From positions 1-7,457 of IMG/VR virus record IMGVR_UViG_2737471865_000004: DNA of 7,457 nt. One strand, written 5' to 3'. The notes under the pieces were generated by a model, which made no database searches, was not told the origin of the DNA, and was given only the letters and a program-made list of their open reading frames with translations. Origin of the DNA: a virus (taxonomy: Duplodnaviria > Heunggongvirae > Uroviricota > Caudoviricetes). Position numbers and translations under genes: made by a program. Positions 197 through 6,175 of this stretch are shown here, piece after piece; positions within the stretch are counted from its first letter, which is position 1, and every line of letters starts with the position of its first letter.

Positions 197-3100
197 CTGA
201 GTCAGCCGAGAAGAATTTCCCCGCTTATTCGCACCTTCCCTAATAATACAACCATTAACGGAGGAAGACAGACAATTCATGACGGGGGCATTTCCACCGG
301 TACGATAATCGACAGTGGCAATCAGGACGTTTATACAGGTGGTATCAGCAATGGAACGACAATTAAGGGTGGTAATTCACACATAAGTGGGGGGACTGCG
401 AATGGAACCATCATTGATGGTGGAGGGCAGACAGTAACAACTCAGGGGCATGTTGATGGTACAACGATAAATAAGTCCGGTTATCAGGACATCACGCAAG
501 GAAGTATTGCAACGAACACAATCATAAATGGTGGACGACAGTATGTTGAACAGAGCACAGTAGGAACAACCACCATTAAAAATGGCGGTGAGCAAAGAGT
601 ATATGAAAGCCATGCGCTGGACACGACGATTGAAGGTGGAACTCAGTCTCTGAATAATAAGTCAACGGCAAAAAATACTCAGATCTATTCTGGTGGTACG
701 CAAATTGTTGATTACACCAGCTCCTCGGATGTTATTGAAGTTTATTCCGGTGGCGTGCTTGATGTTAGTGGTGGTACGGCAACAAATGTTACCCAGCACG
801 ATGGTGCAATTTTAAAAACAAACACTAACGGTACGACGGTGAGCGGTACGAATAGTGAAGGTGCATTCTCCATCCACAATCACGTGGCAGACAATGTGTT
901 GCTGGAAAACGGTGGTCATTTAGACATAAACGCATATGGTTCGGCAAACAAGACGATTATTAAAGATAAAGGAACAATGTCAGTTTTAACGAATGCTAAA
1001 GCTGATGCGACCCGAATAGATAACGGCGGGGTAATGGATGTTACCGGAAACGCGACCAATACCATAATCAATGGTGGTACACAGAATATTAATAATCATG
1101 GTATTGCCACGGGTACCAATATCAACGGCGGAACGCAAAATATCAAGAGCGGCGGGAAAGCTGACACGACAATTATATCCTCCGGGAGCCGGCAGGTTGT
1201 TGAGAAAGATGGTACGGCAACTGGCAGCAATATTAGCGCCGGAGGCTCGCTGATTGTCTATACCGGTGGTATTGCACATGGGGTTAACCAGGAGACGGGC
1301 AGTGCTTTAGTTGCCAACACGGGCGCAGGGACTGATATTGAAGGATACAACAAGCTCTCTCACTTCACTATTACCGGAGGGGAGGCTAATTATGTTGTGC
1401 TGGAAAATACCGGCGAACTGACGGTAGTGGCTAAAACCTCGGCGAAAAATACTACCGTTGATGCTGGCGGTAAGCTGATTGTCCAGAAGGAGGCTAAAAC
1501 AGATACCACCAGACTTAATAATGGTGGCGTTCTGGAGGTTCAGGACGGTGGTGAGGCTAAGCATGTTGAGCAACAATCCGGCGGCGCATTAATTGCTTCC
1601 ACAACTTCCGGAACCCTTATCGAAGGAATCAACAGTTATGGTGATGCTTTCTACATCAGGAATTCAGAAGCTAAAAATGTAGTGCTGGAAAACGCTGGCT
1701 CATTAACAGTCGTCACTGGTTCCCGGGCAGTTGATACGATTATTAATGCCAACGGCAAAATGGATGTTTATGGAAAAGATGTTGGCACTGTACTCAATAG
1801 TGCTGGCACCCAAACAATATATGCCAGTGCCACTTCTGATAAAGCAAATATCAAAGGTGGCAAGCAAACGGTATATGGATTAGCCACTGAGGCAAATATC
1901 GAAAGTGGTGAACAAATTGTTGATGGTGGGTCAACAGAGAAAACACACATCAATGGTGGCACGCAAACCGTTCAGAATTATGGTAAGGCAATCAATACCG
2001 ATATCGTCTCTGGCCTACAACAAATTATGGCAAACGGGACAGCGGAAGGTTCCATTATTAATGGGTGTTCACAGGTAGTTAATGAGGGCGGTCTGGCTGA
2101 AAACTCGGTGCTTAATGACGGCGGCACACTCGATGTGCGGGAGAAAGGCAGCGCAACGGGGATACAGCAGAGTAGCCAGGACGCTTTGGTTGCAACCACC
2201 AGGGCGACGCGGGTCACAGGAACACGCGCGGATGGCGTCGCGTTCAGCATCGAGCAGGGTGCGGCGAACAATATCCTGCTGGCAAATGGCGGCGTGTTAA
2301 CCATGGAGTCAGACACCTCTTCTGACAAAACACAGGTCAATACGGGCGGACGGGAGATCGTCAAAACAAAAGCCACTGCGACAGGCACGACGCTCACCGG
2401 CGGCGAACAAATCGTCGAGGGGGTGGCGAATGAGACAACGATTAACGACGGCGGAATACAAACAGTTTCAGCTAACGGAGAGGCAATAAAAACAAAGATC
2501 AATGAAGGCGGTACGCTGACAGTTAACGATAATGGCAAAGCGACAGATATCGTCCAGAACAGCGGTGCCGCTCTCCAGACGAGCACGGCTAACGGTATTG
2601 AAATCAGCGGTACTCACCAGTACGGCACTTTTTCCATTTCCGGCAATTTAGCGACCAATATGTTGCTGGAAAATGGCGGTAATTTATTGGTATTAGCAGG
2701 TACCGAAGCTCGCGACTCCACGGTTGGCAGCGGTGGAGCCGCCAACGGCAGTTATCGCAGCAACGGGCTGGGCGGTCACATTGAAACCGGGATGCGATTT
2801 ACCGATGGTAACTGGAACCTGACGCCGTATGCATCGTTAACGGGGGTTCACCGCTGATAACCCTGAATATCATTTATCCAATGGCATGGAATCGAAATCA
2901 GTCGATACCCGCAGTTTATATCGTGAACTGGGTGCAACGCTGAGTTACAACATGCGTCTGGGGAACGGTATGGAAGTTGAGCCGTGGCTGAAGGCGGCTG
3001 TGCGCAAAGAATTTGTCGATGATAACCGGGTGAAAGTGAATAGTGACGGTAATTTCGTCAATGATTTGTCGGGCAGACGTGGAATATACCAGGCAGGTAT

Positions 3101-3212
3101 TAAAGCCTCATTCAGCAGTACGTTAAGCGGGCATCTTGGGGTGGGGTATAGCCATGGTGCCGGTGTGGAATCCCCGTGGAACGGGGTAGCTGGTGTGAAC
3201 TGGTCGTTCTGA
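197..3212 (+). pseudogene. ypjA: Type Va (AIDA-I/Ag43-like) autotransporter adhesin remnant, ypjA-like; 5'-truncated and frameshifted
   Basis: One frame is open from 197 (just after an in-frame TGA at 194-196) to TGA at 2855-2857, with no in-frame ATG or signal peptide; the track ORF 755-2857 begins at an internal GTG. Translation is Gly/Thr/Asn-rich with recurring ...T-I-I-N-G-G-T-Q... units typical of AIDA-type passenger repeats. ORF 2886-3212 in another frame ends ...GVNWSF, a typical beta-barrel C-terminus; that frame is open back to 2841, so the frame switch lies at about 2841-2857. Symbol is by synteny only: an autotransporter 3' end ~160 bp from the ssrA-derived att core, as I recall for ypjA next to CP4-57 in E. 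coli K-12. Confidence 0.75.
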
Positions 3213-3221
3213 CCATCAACG

Positions 3222-3245
3222 AAAAAGCCCACATCTGTGGGCTTT
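3222..3245. terminator. Bidirectional intrinsic terminator hairpin (AAAAA-GCCCAC-ATCT-GTGGGC-TTT)
   Basis: Perfect 6-bp GC-rich stem 3227-3232 / 3237-3242 with a 4-nt loop, A5 tract upstream and T3 downstream on the plus strand; on the minus strand the same hairpin is followed by TTTTT. It lies 10 bp after the autotransporter stop and ~130 bp downstream (minus-strand sense) of the ssrA 3' end. Confidence 0.5.
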
Positions 3246-3372
3246 CATGTCACCAGGAGCCGCGGCTCCTTTGCGTATCCTTTTATGTCTCTTCACCGTC
3301 TGGTCGGTGTCCTGCTGAGACTGCTAACTTCCTGTTTTTATTGGTGTTGTCCTTATACCGTCCAATCATGAT

Positions 3373-3417
3373 TGGTGGAGCTGGCGGGAGTTGAACCCGC
3401 GTCCGAAATTCCTACAT
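3373..3417 (-). other. ssrA: 3'-terminal ~45 nt of ssrA (tmRNA) including the CCA end: prophage attachment-site core at the prophage/chromosome junction
   Basis: Minus strand reads ...ATGTAGGAATTTCGGACGCGGGTTCAACTCCCGCCAGCTCCACCA, which matches the 3' end of E. coli tmRNA as I recall it. The match stops at 3417/3418 and nothing upstream resembles the rest of ssrA, so this is a fragment or att core, not a gene. Confidence 0.7.
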
Positions 3418-3533
3418 ACCATTTTGACTATAATAAAAACATATATTTATGTTTTAAAACAGTACGTTAGTGTTATTTTGTTTTTGTCGGTTTTACACAT
3501 TTTTAATGCTCTGCCGCCAAGTTGTCGCCATTG

Positions 3534-4517
3534 CTAATTCCTATCAGCAGGTAGAATTGCTGGGTAGAGCTTAGAGCAATCATTGCCATAGTCAGGGATA
3601 AAGTCCCATAGCCCTTTTGGCGTTTGGAAGACCTCAGGGCTTAAGCCAATCAGCATATAAACATGAACTAACAGCTCGCGCAATCCAGTGACCATTTGCT
3701 TTATTTGTTTTTCATCAGAGAAAGAAGTGGTGAAGGGTTTTTCTTCAATGGAGTCAAAAAGAATAAACTCATGTTTTTCATATCGATAGTCGATCCCTAA
3801 TTCTCTGCAAAGTTGGATAATATTGATTTCGAGCATTTGAAGGGAAATCACTTGGATATCATAAGAAGTCTCTTTGTTGTAACAGCTTTTAATAGCTTTG
3901 TTGATATTCTTATAATAATCTTGAACTCTACCCATAAATAATGAACTTATTTCTTTGCTATAGCCTTCTTCAATAGAGGATTTTGTAAAAATATTCATGT
4001 AAAGAATATAAGGGTGAGAAATGGAAAGTTCTATATATTTTTTTCCATCATCGTGTTCGGTAAACTCTCTACTAACGATAAATGAAGGGACGGTTTTAAA
4101 AATATCGGCATAACTCTTCTGGTGGGCATAAAATGAATCAGATTTATTTTTTGCTTTTACCAGCTCTATTTGATGCTCTGTCCTTGAAAGCTGCGTCTCT
4201 GTTTGAATGGTCCTGTGAATATTCTTAACTATAGCTCCAAGAGGTACTGAACTGGCTAGCAGCATTAGAGGGAATTTACTGATTTCGTAAAAGCGAGTAT
4301 AGCCGTGGGCACTTAACACCGGGACCTTGCCCCACCATGCGAAAATCCCAAAATAAAAGAATGATAATACTGGTATTCCGATTGATAACCAGAATAATTT
4401 CTGTTTTATAAGGTTTTGTTCATTTAATAAATACCACTTGTATTTATATGTTAAATACAATATGTATATTAACATTACAACATAGAACATAATGCCAATT
4501 GATGAATAGAGGGTCAT
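3534..4517 (-). CDS. Hypothetical membrane-anchored protein, 327 aa (two N-terminal hydrophobic helices plus ~265-aa C-terminal domain); AT-rich prophage cargo gene of unknown function
   Basis: Uninterrupted 327-codon ORF. Its ATG (4517-4515) overlaps the int stop codon (ATGA overlap). Hydrophobic segments at roughly residues 7-24 and 41-62. Hand-counted GC of sampled 60-nt stretches is ~23-28% versus ~48% in int. No catalytic motif I can recognise. Confidence 0.7.
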   Translation of the reverse strand: MTLYSSIGIMFYVVMLIYILYLTYKYKWYLLNEQNLIKQKLFWLSIGIPVLSFFYFGIFAWWGKVPVLSAHGYTRFYEISKFPLMLLASSVPLGAIVKNIHRTIQTETQLSRTEHQIELVKAKNKSDSFYAHQKSYADIFKTVPSFIVSREFTEHDDGKKYIELSISHPYILYMNIFTKSSIEEGYSKEISSLFMGRVQDYYKNINKAIKSCYNKETSYDIQVISLQMLEINIIQLCRELGIDYRYEKHEFILFDSIEEKPFTTSFSDEKQIKQMVTGLRELLVHVYMLIGLSPEVFQTPKGLWDFIPDYGNDCSKLYPAILPADRN

Positions 4518-5541
4518 GCTTTTTTCCAGTCTAATTTGTAAAGTGGATTTTTTGTTACAGCATCTTCCAAGTGATCAGGGGCAAAGTGAGCGTAAACCAT
4601 CGTCATTTTTATATCAGCATGGCCCAGAATATCGCGCAGTACCAGTATATTTCCGCCGTTCATCATAAAATGGCTGGCGAATGTATGGCGCAGTACGTGG
4701 GTGCACTGGCCCTCTGGCAGTTCGATACCGGCTCGCTTTACTGCACGCTCAAAGGATTTTCTGCATGGGGTAAATAATCTCCCCCTGTTTTTAGGTAGTT
4801 CGTCATACAGTTCTTGAGATATTGGAACGGTTCGGTTTTTTTTACCTTTGGTCTTGGTATAAGTAATGCGATATTTTGATAACTGATGCCCTTGCAGGTT
4901 TTCTGCTTCACTCCATCGGGCACCAGTTGCTAGGCATATTTTTGCAATCATCAACAGACTGGGACTCTGAGAATCAGCACAGGCATCCAGTAGGCGTTTA
5001 ATTTCTTCCGGGGTCAGGAATGCTAGTTCACCCTCAGCGATTTTAAATGTTGGCAGCCCGACGAGAGGATTTGGTGCTGACCAGTGGCCTAGTTTTTTCA
5101 ATGTGCCGAAAACCGATGATAGGTACGTTGCTCAAGATTCACCGTGCGTGGTTTTACTGGCGACATTAGTGTGCCGTCTTCGTTACGAAGGTCACCTTTT
5201 AACCGTGCTTCGCGGTATTTCGTAAAGTCTCCGGCTGTCAGTTCTGAGGCGATGGGGTCGCCTAGACCATTACAGATAATTCTAAGTTTCGCCATGAGGC
5301 GCTTGGGGTCTGCGAGTGTCTGACCATACAGGGAATACCAAAGCTCAATTAACTCTGATAGGCGTCGCCGATCATCCTTTTCACCCAACCACGGTTTTTT
5401 ATTCACTTCTTCCATTGTGAAGCTTTCAAACGCAATGGCTTCGCCTTTCGTGGCAAATTGCTTACGCACGCGCTTGCCATTGCGTCCATTGGGATAGCAC
5501 TCACACAACCATTTTCCGTTCGGCTGTTTTCTGATGGTCAT
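4514..5541 (-). pseudogene. int: Tyrosine recombinase / integrase of the P2/186 family, split by a frameshift (N-terminal part 5098-5541, C-terminal part 4514-5101)
   Basis: N-terminal ORF begins MTIRKQPNGKWLCECYPNGRNGKRVRKQF... and C-terminal ORF carries ...LATGARWSEAE..., ...HVLRHTFASHFMMNGGNILVLRDILGHADIKMTMVYAHFAP..., which recall the P2 Int catalytic region. The C-terminal frame is open only from 5131 downward after a stop at 5132-5134, and homology resumes there (…ATYLSSVFGTLKKLGHW), so a single indel at about 5123-5135 separates the halves. Combined length ~340 aa. Confidence 0.85.
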
Positions 5542-5542
5542 A

Positions 5543-6175
5543 TCAAAGGCTCTTAATGATTTTCAGTGCGCGGCCTACTACCTCAATGTCATCCAGGCCG
5601 CACTCAAACGATGAATCATCCTGATGCACTACTAATTTGTTTCCCGGGAGTCGAGTCAATTTAACAATGCTTTTTATCCCGTCGATATCGACTAACCACA
5701 TACCATTTACTAGTGGTGTTTGGTTGCGATCTATTAAATAAGAATCACCAGAAGTAGTCACCAGCAGTAGGTTGCTTGAGTTTGAGGGGAGTATGCTGCT
5801 ATCAATGATTGCTTTTCCAGCATCGATCAATAAACCACCGTTGAGAGTCGCCTTGTCAATTTCAGGAGATACTAGTTCAGAAAGAGGTATAACCTTGCTG
5901 GAGTTCACGGAATTGATATTTTTTTTGGGTTCAATGTTTGAACCTGGCTCCCCCTGTCCGGTGGTTAGCCACAGTAAAGAAACTCCTGTTTCCAAGGCGC
6001 ACTGAATCACCCACTCTGCAGGAAAACTATCTCTTAAGTATCTGTTTGCCATGGTACTTTTTGATGCGCCTAAGTGATCGCAAAGTTGCTGTCTGGACTT
6101 GAAATCATAGGCTGCCATTAGTCTATGGATAGCCTCTCTTCCCCCTGTATTCTCTCCAGCCTTTACCTGTATCAT
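5543..6175 (-). CDS. cI: CI-type lysogeny repressor (N-terminal HTH domain); occupies the 186 cI / P2 C position immediately upstream of int
   Basis: 210-codon ORF whose stop lies 1 nt before the int start, implying a cI-int operon. N-terminal region (...SRQQLCDHLGASKSTMANRYLRD...) looks like an HTH. AGGA sits about 6 nt upstream of the first ATG; an internal Met 19 codons in would give 191 aa. Confidence 0.65.
   Translation of the reverse strand: MIQVKAGENTGGREAIHRLMAAYDFKSRQQLCDHLGASKSTMANRYLRDSFPAEWVIQCALETGVSLLWLTTGQGEPGSNIEPKKNINSVNSSKVIPLSELVSPEIDKATLNGGLLIDAGKAIIDSSILPSNSSNLLLVTTSGDSYLIDRNQTPLVNGMWLVDIDGIKSIVKLTRLPGNKLVVHQDDSSFECGLDDIEVVGRALKIIKSL

Follow-up and report, generated by a model that had tools for sequence, protein, structure and literature searches.

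Sequence comparison places a 14-bp palindrome in an ssrA-flank module common to bacterial chromosomes and one lineage of temperate phages

Among enteric bacteria the ssrA gene ranks with the most heavily used integration sites, and the DNA immediately behind it is generally regarded as anonymous flank. Does this DNA hold an element of its own, and if so, would it act as RNA or as DNA? The question is raised by a perfect 14-bp dyad, GGAGCCGCGGCTCC, at positions 3256–3269 (minus strand) of the 7,457-nucleotide stretch of the viral record IMGVR_UViG_2737471865_000004 that was analysed here as a whole (the window). The first-pass annotation had reported this palindrome in a chromosomal flank, between a terminator hairpin and the att core and, on the minus strand, upstream of the stronger terminator, and had offered a tight hairpin or a dimeric protein-binding site without choosing between them. 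The palindrome is present exactly as claimed, its placement between the hairpin (3224–3245) and the att core (a tmRNA fragment from 3373) and upstream of that terminator holds, and the hairpin and the protein site are still the two live readings. Beyond this, the flank proves to be the native 3' flank of ssrA and to be phage-borne as well, and the palindrome is the outermost unit in a module of phased repeats.

The origin of the flank is evident from island-free E. coli genomes, in which a complete ssrA abuts at window position 3373 and converges on ypjA; positions 3222–3372 are thus the native ssrA 3' flank, and the ssrA-sense strand is the minus strand. What the window retains of the gene is a displaced tmRNA 3' fragment forming the prophage att core (3373–3419, minus strand), which was delimited by the Rfam model RF00023 and by alignment with intact ssrA. 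The model matches 3373–3430 on the minus strand (52.7 bits; model positions 317–374, the last 58), while identity to intact ssrA stops at about 3419 in the alignment, giving a displaced fragment of 47 nt. ARAGORN, a tRNA/tmRNA finder, makes no call in the window because the ssrA piece is only a fragment. The dyad lies outside the tmRNA gene, the covariance-model match covering 3373–3430 only.

To the right of the core lies the integration end of a P2/186-like prophage (3534–6175, minus strand) with a hypothetical gene, an integrase in two frames and a CI repressor, identified by annotation and by the Pfam families Phage_integrase, Int_N and Phage_CI_repr; CII, Fil and replication genes of the same prophage follow beyond the repressor. 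The window consists of E. coli DNA, and its region 3100–3480 is 100% identical to E. coli SCU-106. The intact ssrA is located at the opposite end of the prophage, some 32 kb to the right, where a terminator supplied by the phage follows 10 nt after the CCA. The same displaced flank occurs in K-12 at the right end of CP4-57, beside the annotated pseudo-ssrA 'psaA'. As read from this arrangement, a P2/186-like prophage integrated in the 3' end of ssrA has displaced the flank, and the window copy is an orphan. Being cut off from ssrA and lying beside an unrelated integrase, it is probably idle whether the dyad acts as RNA or as DNA. The anatomy is that used in Islander-type mapping, which relies on the displaced tDNA or tmDNA fragment and the flank behind it at the distal junction of the element (PMC4383910): the prophage in the ssrA 3' end restores the gene, and the original 3' fragment and its downstream DNA are found at the other junction. 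The difference is that the flank here is a conserved module of fixed length that some phages carry, not arbitrary DNA.

Several features of the surrounding DNA may be recorded in their own right. Upstream, the window is not colinear with SCU-106. The autotransporter gene ypjA/EhaD is disrupted over 755–3212 into an ORF of 700 aa, with its end at 2857, and another of 108 aa for the beta-barrel, at 2886–3212; the gene is annotated as a pseudogene in the matching strain, and an IS3 element and an invertase fragment lie further upstream. This 3' fragment (2886–3212, plus strand; beta-barrel part, from the ORF list and the SCU-106 annotation) is a neighbour outside the module. The P2-like integrase (4514–5541) is split at about 5123 by a 1-nt deletion relative to the intact 342-aa gene of SCU-106, which separates an ORF for the N-terminal domain from the catalytic ORF and reflects either a pseudogene or a sequencing error.

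In the ssrA sense the flank closes with an intrinsic terminator (3224–3245, minus strand), recognised by its inverted repeat, its RNA fold and compensatory changes. Its arms, 3224–3233 and 3236–3245, form a 10+10 inverted repeat that folds as a GC-rich stem of 9–10 bp followed by UUUUU on the minus strand; an A-run on its other side makes it potentially bidirectional, and across copies one pair is GC in 48 and AU in 24. The palindrome GGAGCCGCGGCTCC lies 104 nt downstream of the mature tmRNA 3' end and stands 10 nt upstream of the terminator stem. It occurs once in the window, even with two mismatches allowed. First-order Markov simulations of the window predict 0.51 perfect 14-bp palindromes per window, with a probability of 0.40 for at least one; the window contains exactly two, both inside one 120-bp ssrA flank, and the probability of two or more anywhere is 0.09. 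A lone 14-bp palindrome is not beyond chance, and it is conservation and context among the compared sequences, rather than bare occurrence, that lift GGAGCCGCGGCTCC above it.

Folded as ssrA-sense RNA, the dyad gives a stem of 5–6 bp with a CGCG loop (GGAGC-CGCG-GCUCC, minus strand), and the fold check proposed by the first-pass annotation returns this stem-loop plus the terminator. The local fold at positions 103–130 reaches −12.8 kcal/mol, against −6.6 for shuffled sequences. The dyad is followed by UGGUGACA on the minus strand and by UUUGCGUA on the plus strand; it is itself no intrinsic terminator, since no U-tract (about five or more U within 8 nt) directly follows the stem on either strand. 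Nor is the dyad or the flank of the REP/BIME type, the flank occupying a median of one place and a maximum of four per E. coli genome, with one copy in the window.

Of 5426 complete E. coli genomes, 4206 have the 151-bp flank, usually as a single copy and with allele identities of 80–100%, and the other 1220 lack it. A wider retrieval employed a pattern lying about 45 nt from the palindrome and was thus independent of the dyad. It recovered the flank from 120 metagenome contigs and 119 viral or prophage contigs. The scan of species genomes used a 17-mer, a pattern so short that most of its 120 rows are chance matches; five enterobacterial loci were usable, and the flank is present in E. albertii, Klebsiella indica, a Raoultella MAG, Citrobacter meridianamericanus and Trabulsiella odontotermitis. 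Absence from orthologous regions, which the annotation had named as the sign of a chance occurrence, is clearly not what is observed: the dyad is kept 3' of ssrA in E. coli, E. albertii, Klebsiella, Raoultella, Citrobacter and Trabulsiella and in phage attP regions. In E. coli, K. indica, Raoultella, Citrobacter, Trabulsiella and the phages LLS, phiNP and Ayreon it is invariant.

Among 248 flank copies retrieved by a 27-mer about 45 nt away, the dyad core GAGCCGCGGCTC is intact in about 87%. In 27 copies it is replaced by GAGTCGCGACTC, in which a C-G pair has become T-A and the dyad is kept; the full compensated allele, GGAGTCGCGACTCC (C-G to U-A in RNA), is the chromosomal allele beside glaH. 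The single-step intermediates between the two cores are found in two copies each (four in total, against 27). At the outer pair, A1...T14 replaces G1...C14 in one of the 248 copies, and 43 copies carry a G1-to-A variant that leaves a G-U pair on the ssrA-sense strand and A-C on the opposite strand; five copies carry variants tolerated only on the strand opposite the ssrA sense.

The identities of the flank and its neighbours do not follow a tree. Between E. coli and K. indica or Raoultella, ssrA is 96–97% identical, the flank 87%, the smpB–ssrA spacer 55% and smpB third positions 54–59%. Between the reference E. coli CFSAN064036 and E. coli MIN6, ssrA is 99.7% identical, the flank 91%, the spacer 99.5% and smpB third positions 97.5%. 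For E. coli and E. albertii the corresponding values are 100%, 82% (with a 17-nt deletion), 77% and 77.6%. Such a pattern means that flank alleles are exchanged horizontally.

By its sequence the flank is a recognisable module with a fixed length of about 125 nt that is followed by the intrinsic terminator. Divergent flanks, sampled from viral contigs as the DNA that follows identical ssrA 3' ends, align to the E. coli type gap-free over 125–128 nt. All 27 flanks tested contain RGAC at positions 16, 27, (56), 67, 78 and 89 from the CCACCA end, i.e. with a period of 11 nt; the window equivalents are GTCY at 3360, 3349, 3309, 3298 and 3287. An invariant segment, AAAAACAG..AGUUAG, occupies positions 40–55 of the divergent flanks. 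Ungapped cross-family alignment further reveals two tandem 11-bp units, GCGGCTCCTTT and GCGTATCCTTT (3262–3283, plus strand), at sense positions 99 and 110, and the tandem pair is found here in every flank family examined. The palindrome consists of the outer tandem unit, which supplies its right half, and an inverted copy of the end of that unit.

Further putative structural elements lie between the dyad and the tmRNA end. Nested inverted repeats at 3287–3321 (minus strand; outer GTCTC...GAGAC, inner CACCG-TCTGGT-CGGTG), suggested by folds, pair counts and a flipped stem in a divergent family, enclose three of the phased GTCY/RGAC motifs (3287, 3298 and 3309). A hairpin at 3343–3359 (GGTGT-TGTCCTT-ATACC, minus strand) exposes GGAC in its loop on the ssrA-sense strand and covaries, with UA in 43, AU in 15 and CG in 11 at one pair and GC in 52 and AU in 20 at another. 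The second perfect 14-bp palindrome of the window, CCAATCATGATTGG (3362–3375, minus strand), found in the palindrome count, spans the tmRNA end, so that the 3'-terminal CCA pairs with the first flank bases. A divergent family has CCACCA-AAUU-UGGUGG in its place, by which the CCA end is again sequestered through a different sequence. At the place of the dyad, two families with otherwise unrelated sequence carry AAATGCACGTGCATTT or TGCACGTGCA, with the centre shifted by 1 nt; in three other families (L377-type, L458 and L461) the dyad is broken and the hairpin weak or absent, and the tandem direct repeat is retained.

Since RNAalifold mis-paired one hairpin on the E. coli-type set, the five hairpins and the terminator were defined by hand. 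With this structure, 96.2% of cells are paired across 75 distinct E. coli-type flanks, and 77 double-change cells are observed against 22 in shuffles (0 of 500 reaching the observed value), most of this signal coming from the hairpin 3343–3359 and the terminator and not from the dyad. Across divergent flank families RNAalifold gives no common RNA fold (−1.1 kcal/mol). The Rfam gathering scan of the window returned no match, and a permissive scan yielded only the tmRNA fragment and terminator-type noise, including an rsmX match over the terminator on the strand opposite the ssrA sense (22.6 bits, against a cut-off of 56). GGA, the motif that protein-sponge RNAs of the CsrB/RsmZ type carry many times in loops or linkers, occurs six times in 120 nt on the ssrA-sense strand, against one UCC, a weak enrichment (P = 0.037 in shuffles), and only two or three times in some flank families. 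A search of the literature on ssrA trailers, downstream sRNAs and att sites in tmRNA genes found no paper describing the flank.

Homologous flanks are also carried by phages. In phage LLS the flank directly adjoins attP and a tmRNA pseudogene, both annotated, beyond which lie int and xis, and phiNP has the same arrangement; the integrases of the two phages are 85% identical in amino acids and the excisionases 94%. LLS Int contains the domain PF12167 (Arm-DNA-bind_2, E = 7e-22). The adjacent gene encodes a 72-aa protein that matches no Pfam family and whose 94%-identical phiNP homologue is annotated as excisionase. The P2-like integrase of the window itself matches Int_N and Phage_integrase, and the finding of an arm domain does not extend to it. 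E. coli EC69 (NZ_CM128670.1) harbours a prophage of about 43 kb at ssrA with an int-xis pair of the LLS type (Int 86%, Xis 88%) and a flank copy at each end, from which it follows that LLS-type phages rebuild the ssrA end together with about 150 bp of downstream flank. The allele is GGAGTCGCGACTCC in the host copy, whose neighbour is the core gene glaH, and GGAGCCGCGGCTCC in the phage copy, whose neighbour is the intact ssrA. The direct repeats of about 190 bp (flank and core) that bound the prophage thus differ in allele, and homologous recombination between such repeats could swap flank alleles between phage and host. A megablast search for the LLS int-xis module in E. coli gave nothing useful, which is ascribed to nucleotide divergence, as a related prophage (86% in amino acids) exists in EC69. 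In K. indica, an integrase of the P4/CP4-57 type is encoded about 1.6 kb past the flank terminator and is oriented like ssrA; the intact ssrA and this integrase enclose the flank there, unlike the LLS-type arrangement.

A further phage, Ayreon (MF807953, 4001–4107), has a 107-bp flank block in which the dyad is extended to GGGAGCCGCGGCTCCC, with neither a tmRNA fragment nor a terminator, and about 700 E. coli genomes have Ayreon-related prophages at another site. The integrase of Ayreon and that of the LLS type are unrelated, and the att junction of Ayreon is about 185 bp from the block. The block appears to be a relic left when an integration module was exchanged and, for these two reasons, is no test of an arm function. 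By sequence, then, the palindrome is a conserved part of an ssrA-flank module common to chromosomes and to one integrase/excisionase lineage of temperate phages. The marks of this module are its fixed length, two 14-bp palindromes and further hairpins, RGAC every 11 nt, and its being shared and exchanged.

What the dyad does within this module may be explained in several ways, of which an RNA hairpin is ranked first, a DNA site second and a by-product with no function of its own third. The conserved dyad is probably a structural element that is inactive in the displaced copy of the window. We tentatively favour, at somewhat below even confidence, a stem-loop in the read-through transcript of ssrA, 10 nt before the terminator and orphaned here. 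At an unoccupied locus, the flank of about 125 nt and the terminator would be transcribed from the ssrA promoter past the tmRNA 3' end, and the 14 bases would fold on this transcript as a short GC-rich stem-loop before the terminator hairpin. We infer that the hairpin would act at the RNA level, in the 3'-end region of the read-through transcript, where it could keep the terminator region correctly folded; alternatively, hairpin and terminator may together make a stable double-hairpin 3' end of a trailer released by the tmRNA cut at the CCA. The copy in the window could be transcribed only by read-through from the integrase side of the prophage.

The preference for RNA is founded on the compensated host allele, the G-U pattern on the ssrA-sense strand and the replacement of the dyad by other palindromes at its position, the different palindromes of the divergent flanks, within 1 nt of the dyad position, being counted here; these would suggest selection on a hairpin. 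Other observations weigh against it. The flank is dispensable for tmRNA, as a phage terminator follows ssrA here, unrelated CP4-57 sequence follows it in K-12, and 1220 of the 5426 genomes do without it. The sequence of the dyad is conserved far beyond the need of a bare hairpin, its covariation comes down essentially to one allele and a replacement that is not pair-for-pair, and the divergent families share no fold. The evidence from wobble pairs is mixed, in view of the five copies whose variants are tolerated only on the opposite strand.

Stem-loops that precede terminators end the transcripts of bacterial small and stable RNAs, and RNAs derived from trailers are known, e.g. the tRNA 3' external transcribed spacer 3'ETS-leuZ. 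The ssrA flank resembles such trailers in its GC-rich hairpin 10 nt before a strong terminator and in being a segment releasable at a tRNA-like 3'-end cut, but it has no Rfam family, tmRNA does not need it, and the trailer is putative. It is quite improbable that the whole flank functions as a trailer RNA, in effect as tmRNA's own '3' external spacer'; such an RNA would start at the ssrA promoter, which is very strong, be cut at the CCA, be stabilised by dyad and terminator and bind or titrate a protein through its phased GGAC/GGA motifs, and its LLS/phiNP-type version would be expressed only once integrated behind ssrA. A precedent for the expression of joined DNA is ssrA-speA of S. pyogenes M1UK, where read-through from ssrA enters prophage DNA at the attachment site (PMC9951164). 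It shows that ssrA transcription can continue into an element joined to the 3' end of the gene, so that the host promoter can drive expression of flanks brought in by a phage; it differs in organism and sequence and in that a protein gene is expressed, whereas here a terminator closes a flank of 150 nt.

The strongest competitor of the RNA hairpin, possible although we consider it doubtful, is that the flank is, or derives from, the attP arm away from the integrase in phages of the LLS/phiNP type, and that the dyad and the direct copy of its half-site are a candidate site for a recombination protein. The arm domain of the integrase, the excisionase or a host bending protein could be the binder, and the dyad would be the outermost element of a helically phased array; the window copy would then be an inert left-over, the resident P2-like integrase being unrelated. 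In phage lambda the P arm of attP has, over the roughly 150 bp next to the core, phased sites bound by Xis, IHF, Fis and the arm domain of Int. The flank is comparable in lying on the side of the core away from int, in its extent of about 125–150 bp and in its short helically phased motifs, and the LLS-type integrase likewise has an arm-binding domain and an excisionase gene beside it. It is different in that its sites are putative, the host attB side has the same sequence, no IHF consensus is present and repetition on the other arm is not seen.

Much of the phage evidence agrees with an arm. In LLS and phiNP homologous flanks adjoin the tmRNA-type core on its int-distal side, and in the EC69 lysogen they lie at both prophage ends, within about 150 bp of the crossover core of phage attP (annotated in LLS; also phiNP and the EC69 prophage), and these three share their integrase (85–86% in amino acids) and excisionase (88–94%). 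PF12167 in LLS Int (E = 7e-22) and the adjacent excisionase are what an integrase with arm sites would have. The 11-bp phasing of RGAC/GTCY continues into the tandem units at 99 and 110 with no indels over 125 nt, so that helical phase is kept, and the fixed motifs persist although the intervening sequence and the predicted RNA folds differ. Exchange via mobile elements would fit both the 9–13% divergence of flank alleles within E. coli while their neighbours are 99.5% identical and the 87% identity of the flank between genera whose neutral sites are about 55% identical.

Against this, copies lie beside core genes with no phage remains, namely glaH in LS4 and EC69 and metabolic genes in Citrobacter, and such clean host copies indicate that the flank is also ordinary DNA of the attB side. 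If the arm sites of the host were functional, an LLS-type prophage would have a complete attP at its junction on the int side, and directional control would then be difficult to explain. On the int-side arm of LLS no clear repetition of the motif is seen, the host attB is not free of arm sequence, and no IHF consensus (at most one mismatch) occurs in the flank. The symmetric double change in the host copy is predicted by base pairing rather than by a fixed protein specificity, and Ayreon keeps the flank block despite its unrelated integrase and an att core about 185 bp away.

It is unlikely, and less well supported than a DNA site, that the dyad has no function of its own; it would then be a by-product of the 11-bp tandem unit GCGGCTCC and a chance inverted copy, preserved only because the flank is young and has passed repeatedly from phage to chromosome and back. 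A single 14-bp palindrome is within what chance would give; some families have a broken palindrome and an intact direct repeat; E. albertii has its 17-nt deletion beside the dyad and a flank identity at the neutral level (82% vs 77%); and horizontal exchange of alleles can mimic conservation. Yet the families with unrelated sequence at this place still carry a dyad within 1 nt, a compensated allele exists while copies with a single change are rare (4 against 27), and the dyad is invariant even beside segments that have diverged by about 50%.

A back-up terminator on the plus strand, consisting of the hairpin and UUUGCGUAUCCUUUU and serving ypjA or transcription that converges on ssrA, is very unlikely. 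A consensus scan flags an overlapping terminator-like site at 3261–3275, and the sequence after the dyad is U/C-rich; the flagged stem, however, differs from the palindrome and needs two G-U pairs, only three U directly follow the palindrome, the dyad is conserved in contexts that lack ypjA (LS4, Klebsiella and phages), and the main terminator lies upstream of the dyad in the plus direction. Small proteins (28 aa on the minus strand right after the CCA, or a hydrophobic one of 28–44 aa on the plus strand at 3237/3285–3371) are hardly credible, and small ORFs on both strands, whose frames are open in the window allele, are effectively refuted as the cause of the conservation by the lack of any coding signal: the minus-strand ORF stops after four codons in the Klebsiella-type allele, the variable sites of the plus frame are spread evenly over codon positions (15/15/12), synonymous and non-synonymous counts are equal in all three frames, six variants bring stops, and there is neither a Shine-Dalgarno sequence nor room for a promoter.

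For the palindrome taken alone the result is a modest one; the module is of somewhat greater interest. Since the module is also phage-borne, identity between attP and attB runs about 150 bp past the end of the target gene. The flank can be used to mark the true distal end of island arrays at ssrA and to explain extra copies of the ssrA flank in genomes. Should the module prove functional, a trailer RNA would mean that tmRNA has a partner transcribed along with it, and a recombination arm would make one ask how the direction of recombination can be controlled while phage arm and host site look alike.

Flank sequence occurs on plasmids as well. Six large K. pneumoniae plasmids (e.g. NZ_CP071821.1, 56306–56390) carry an 85-bp piece of it (query 59–143, 88% identity) from which the palindrome is absent; in some of them a gene annotated for a TonB family protein covers this piece. 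The whole flank is present in several plasmid records of about 43 kb from E. coli, and in one of 41.7 kb from K. pneumoniae, which may be phage genomes.
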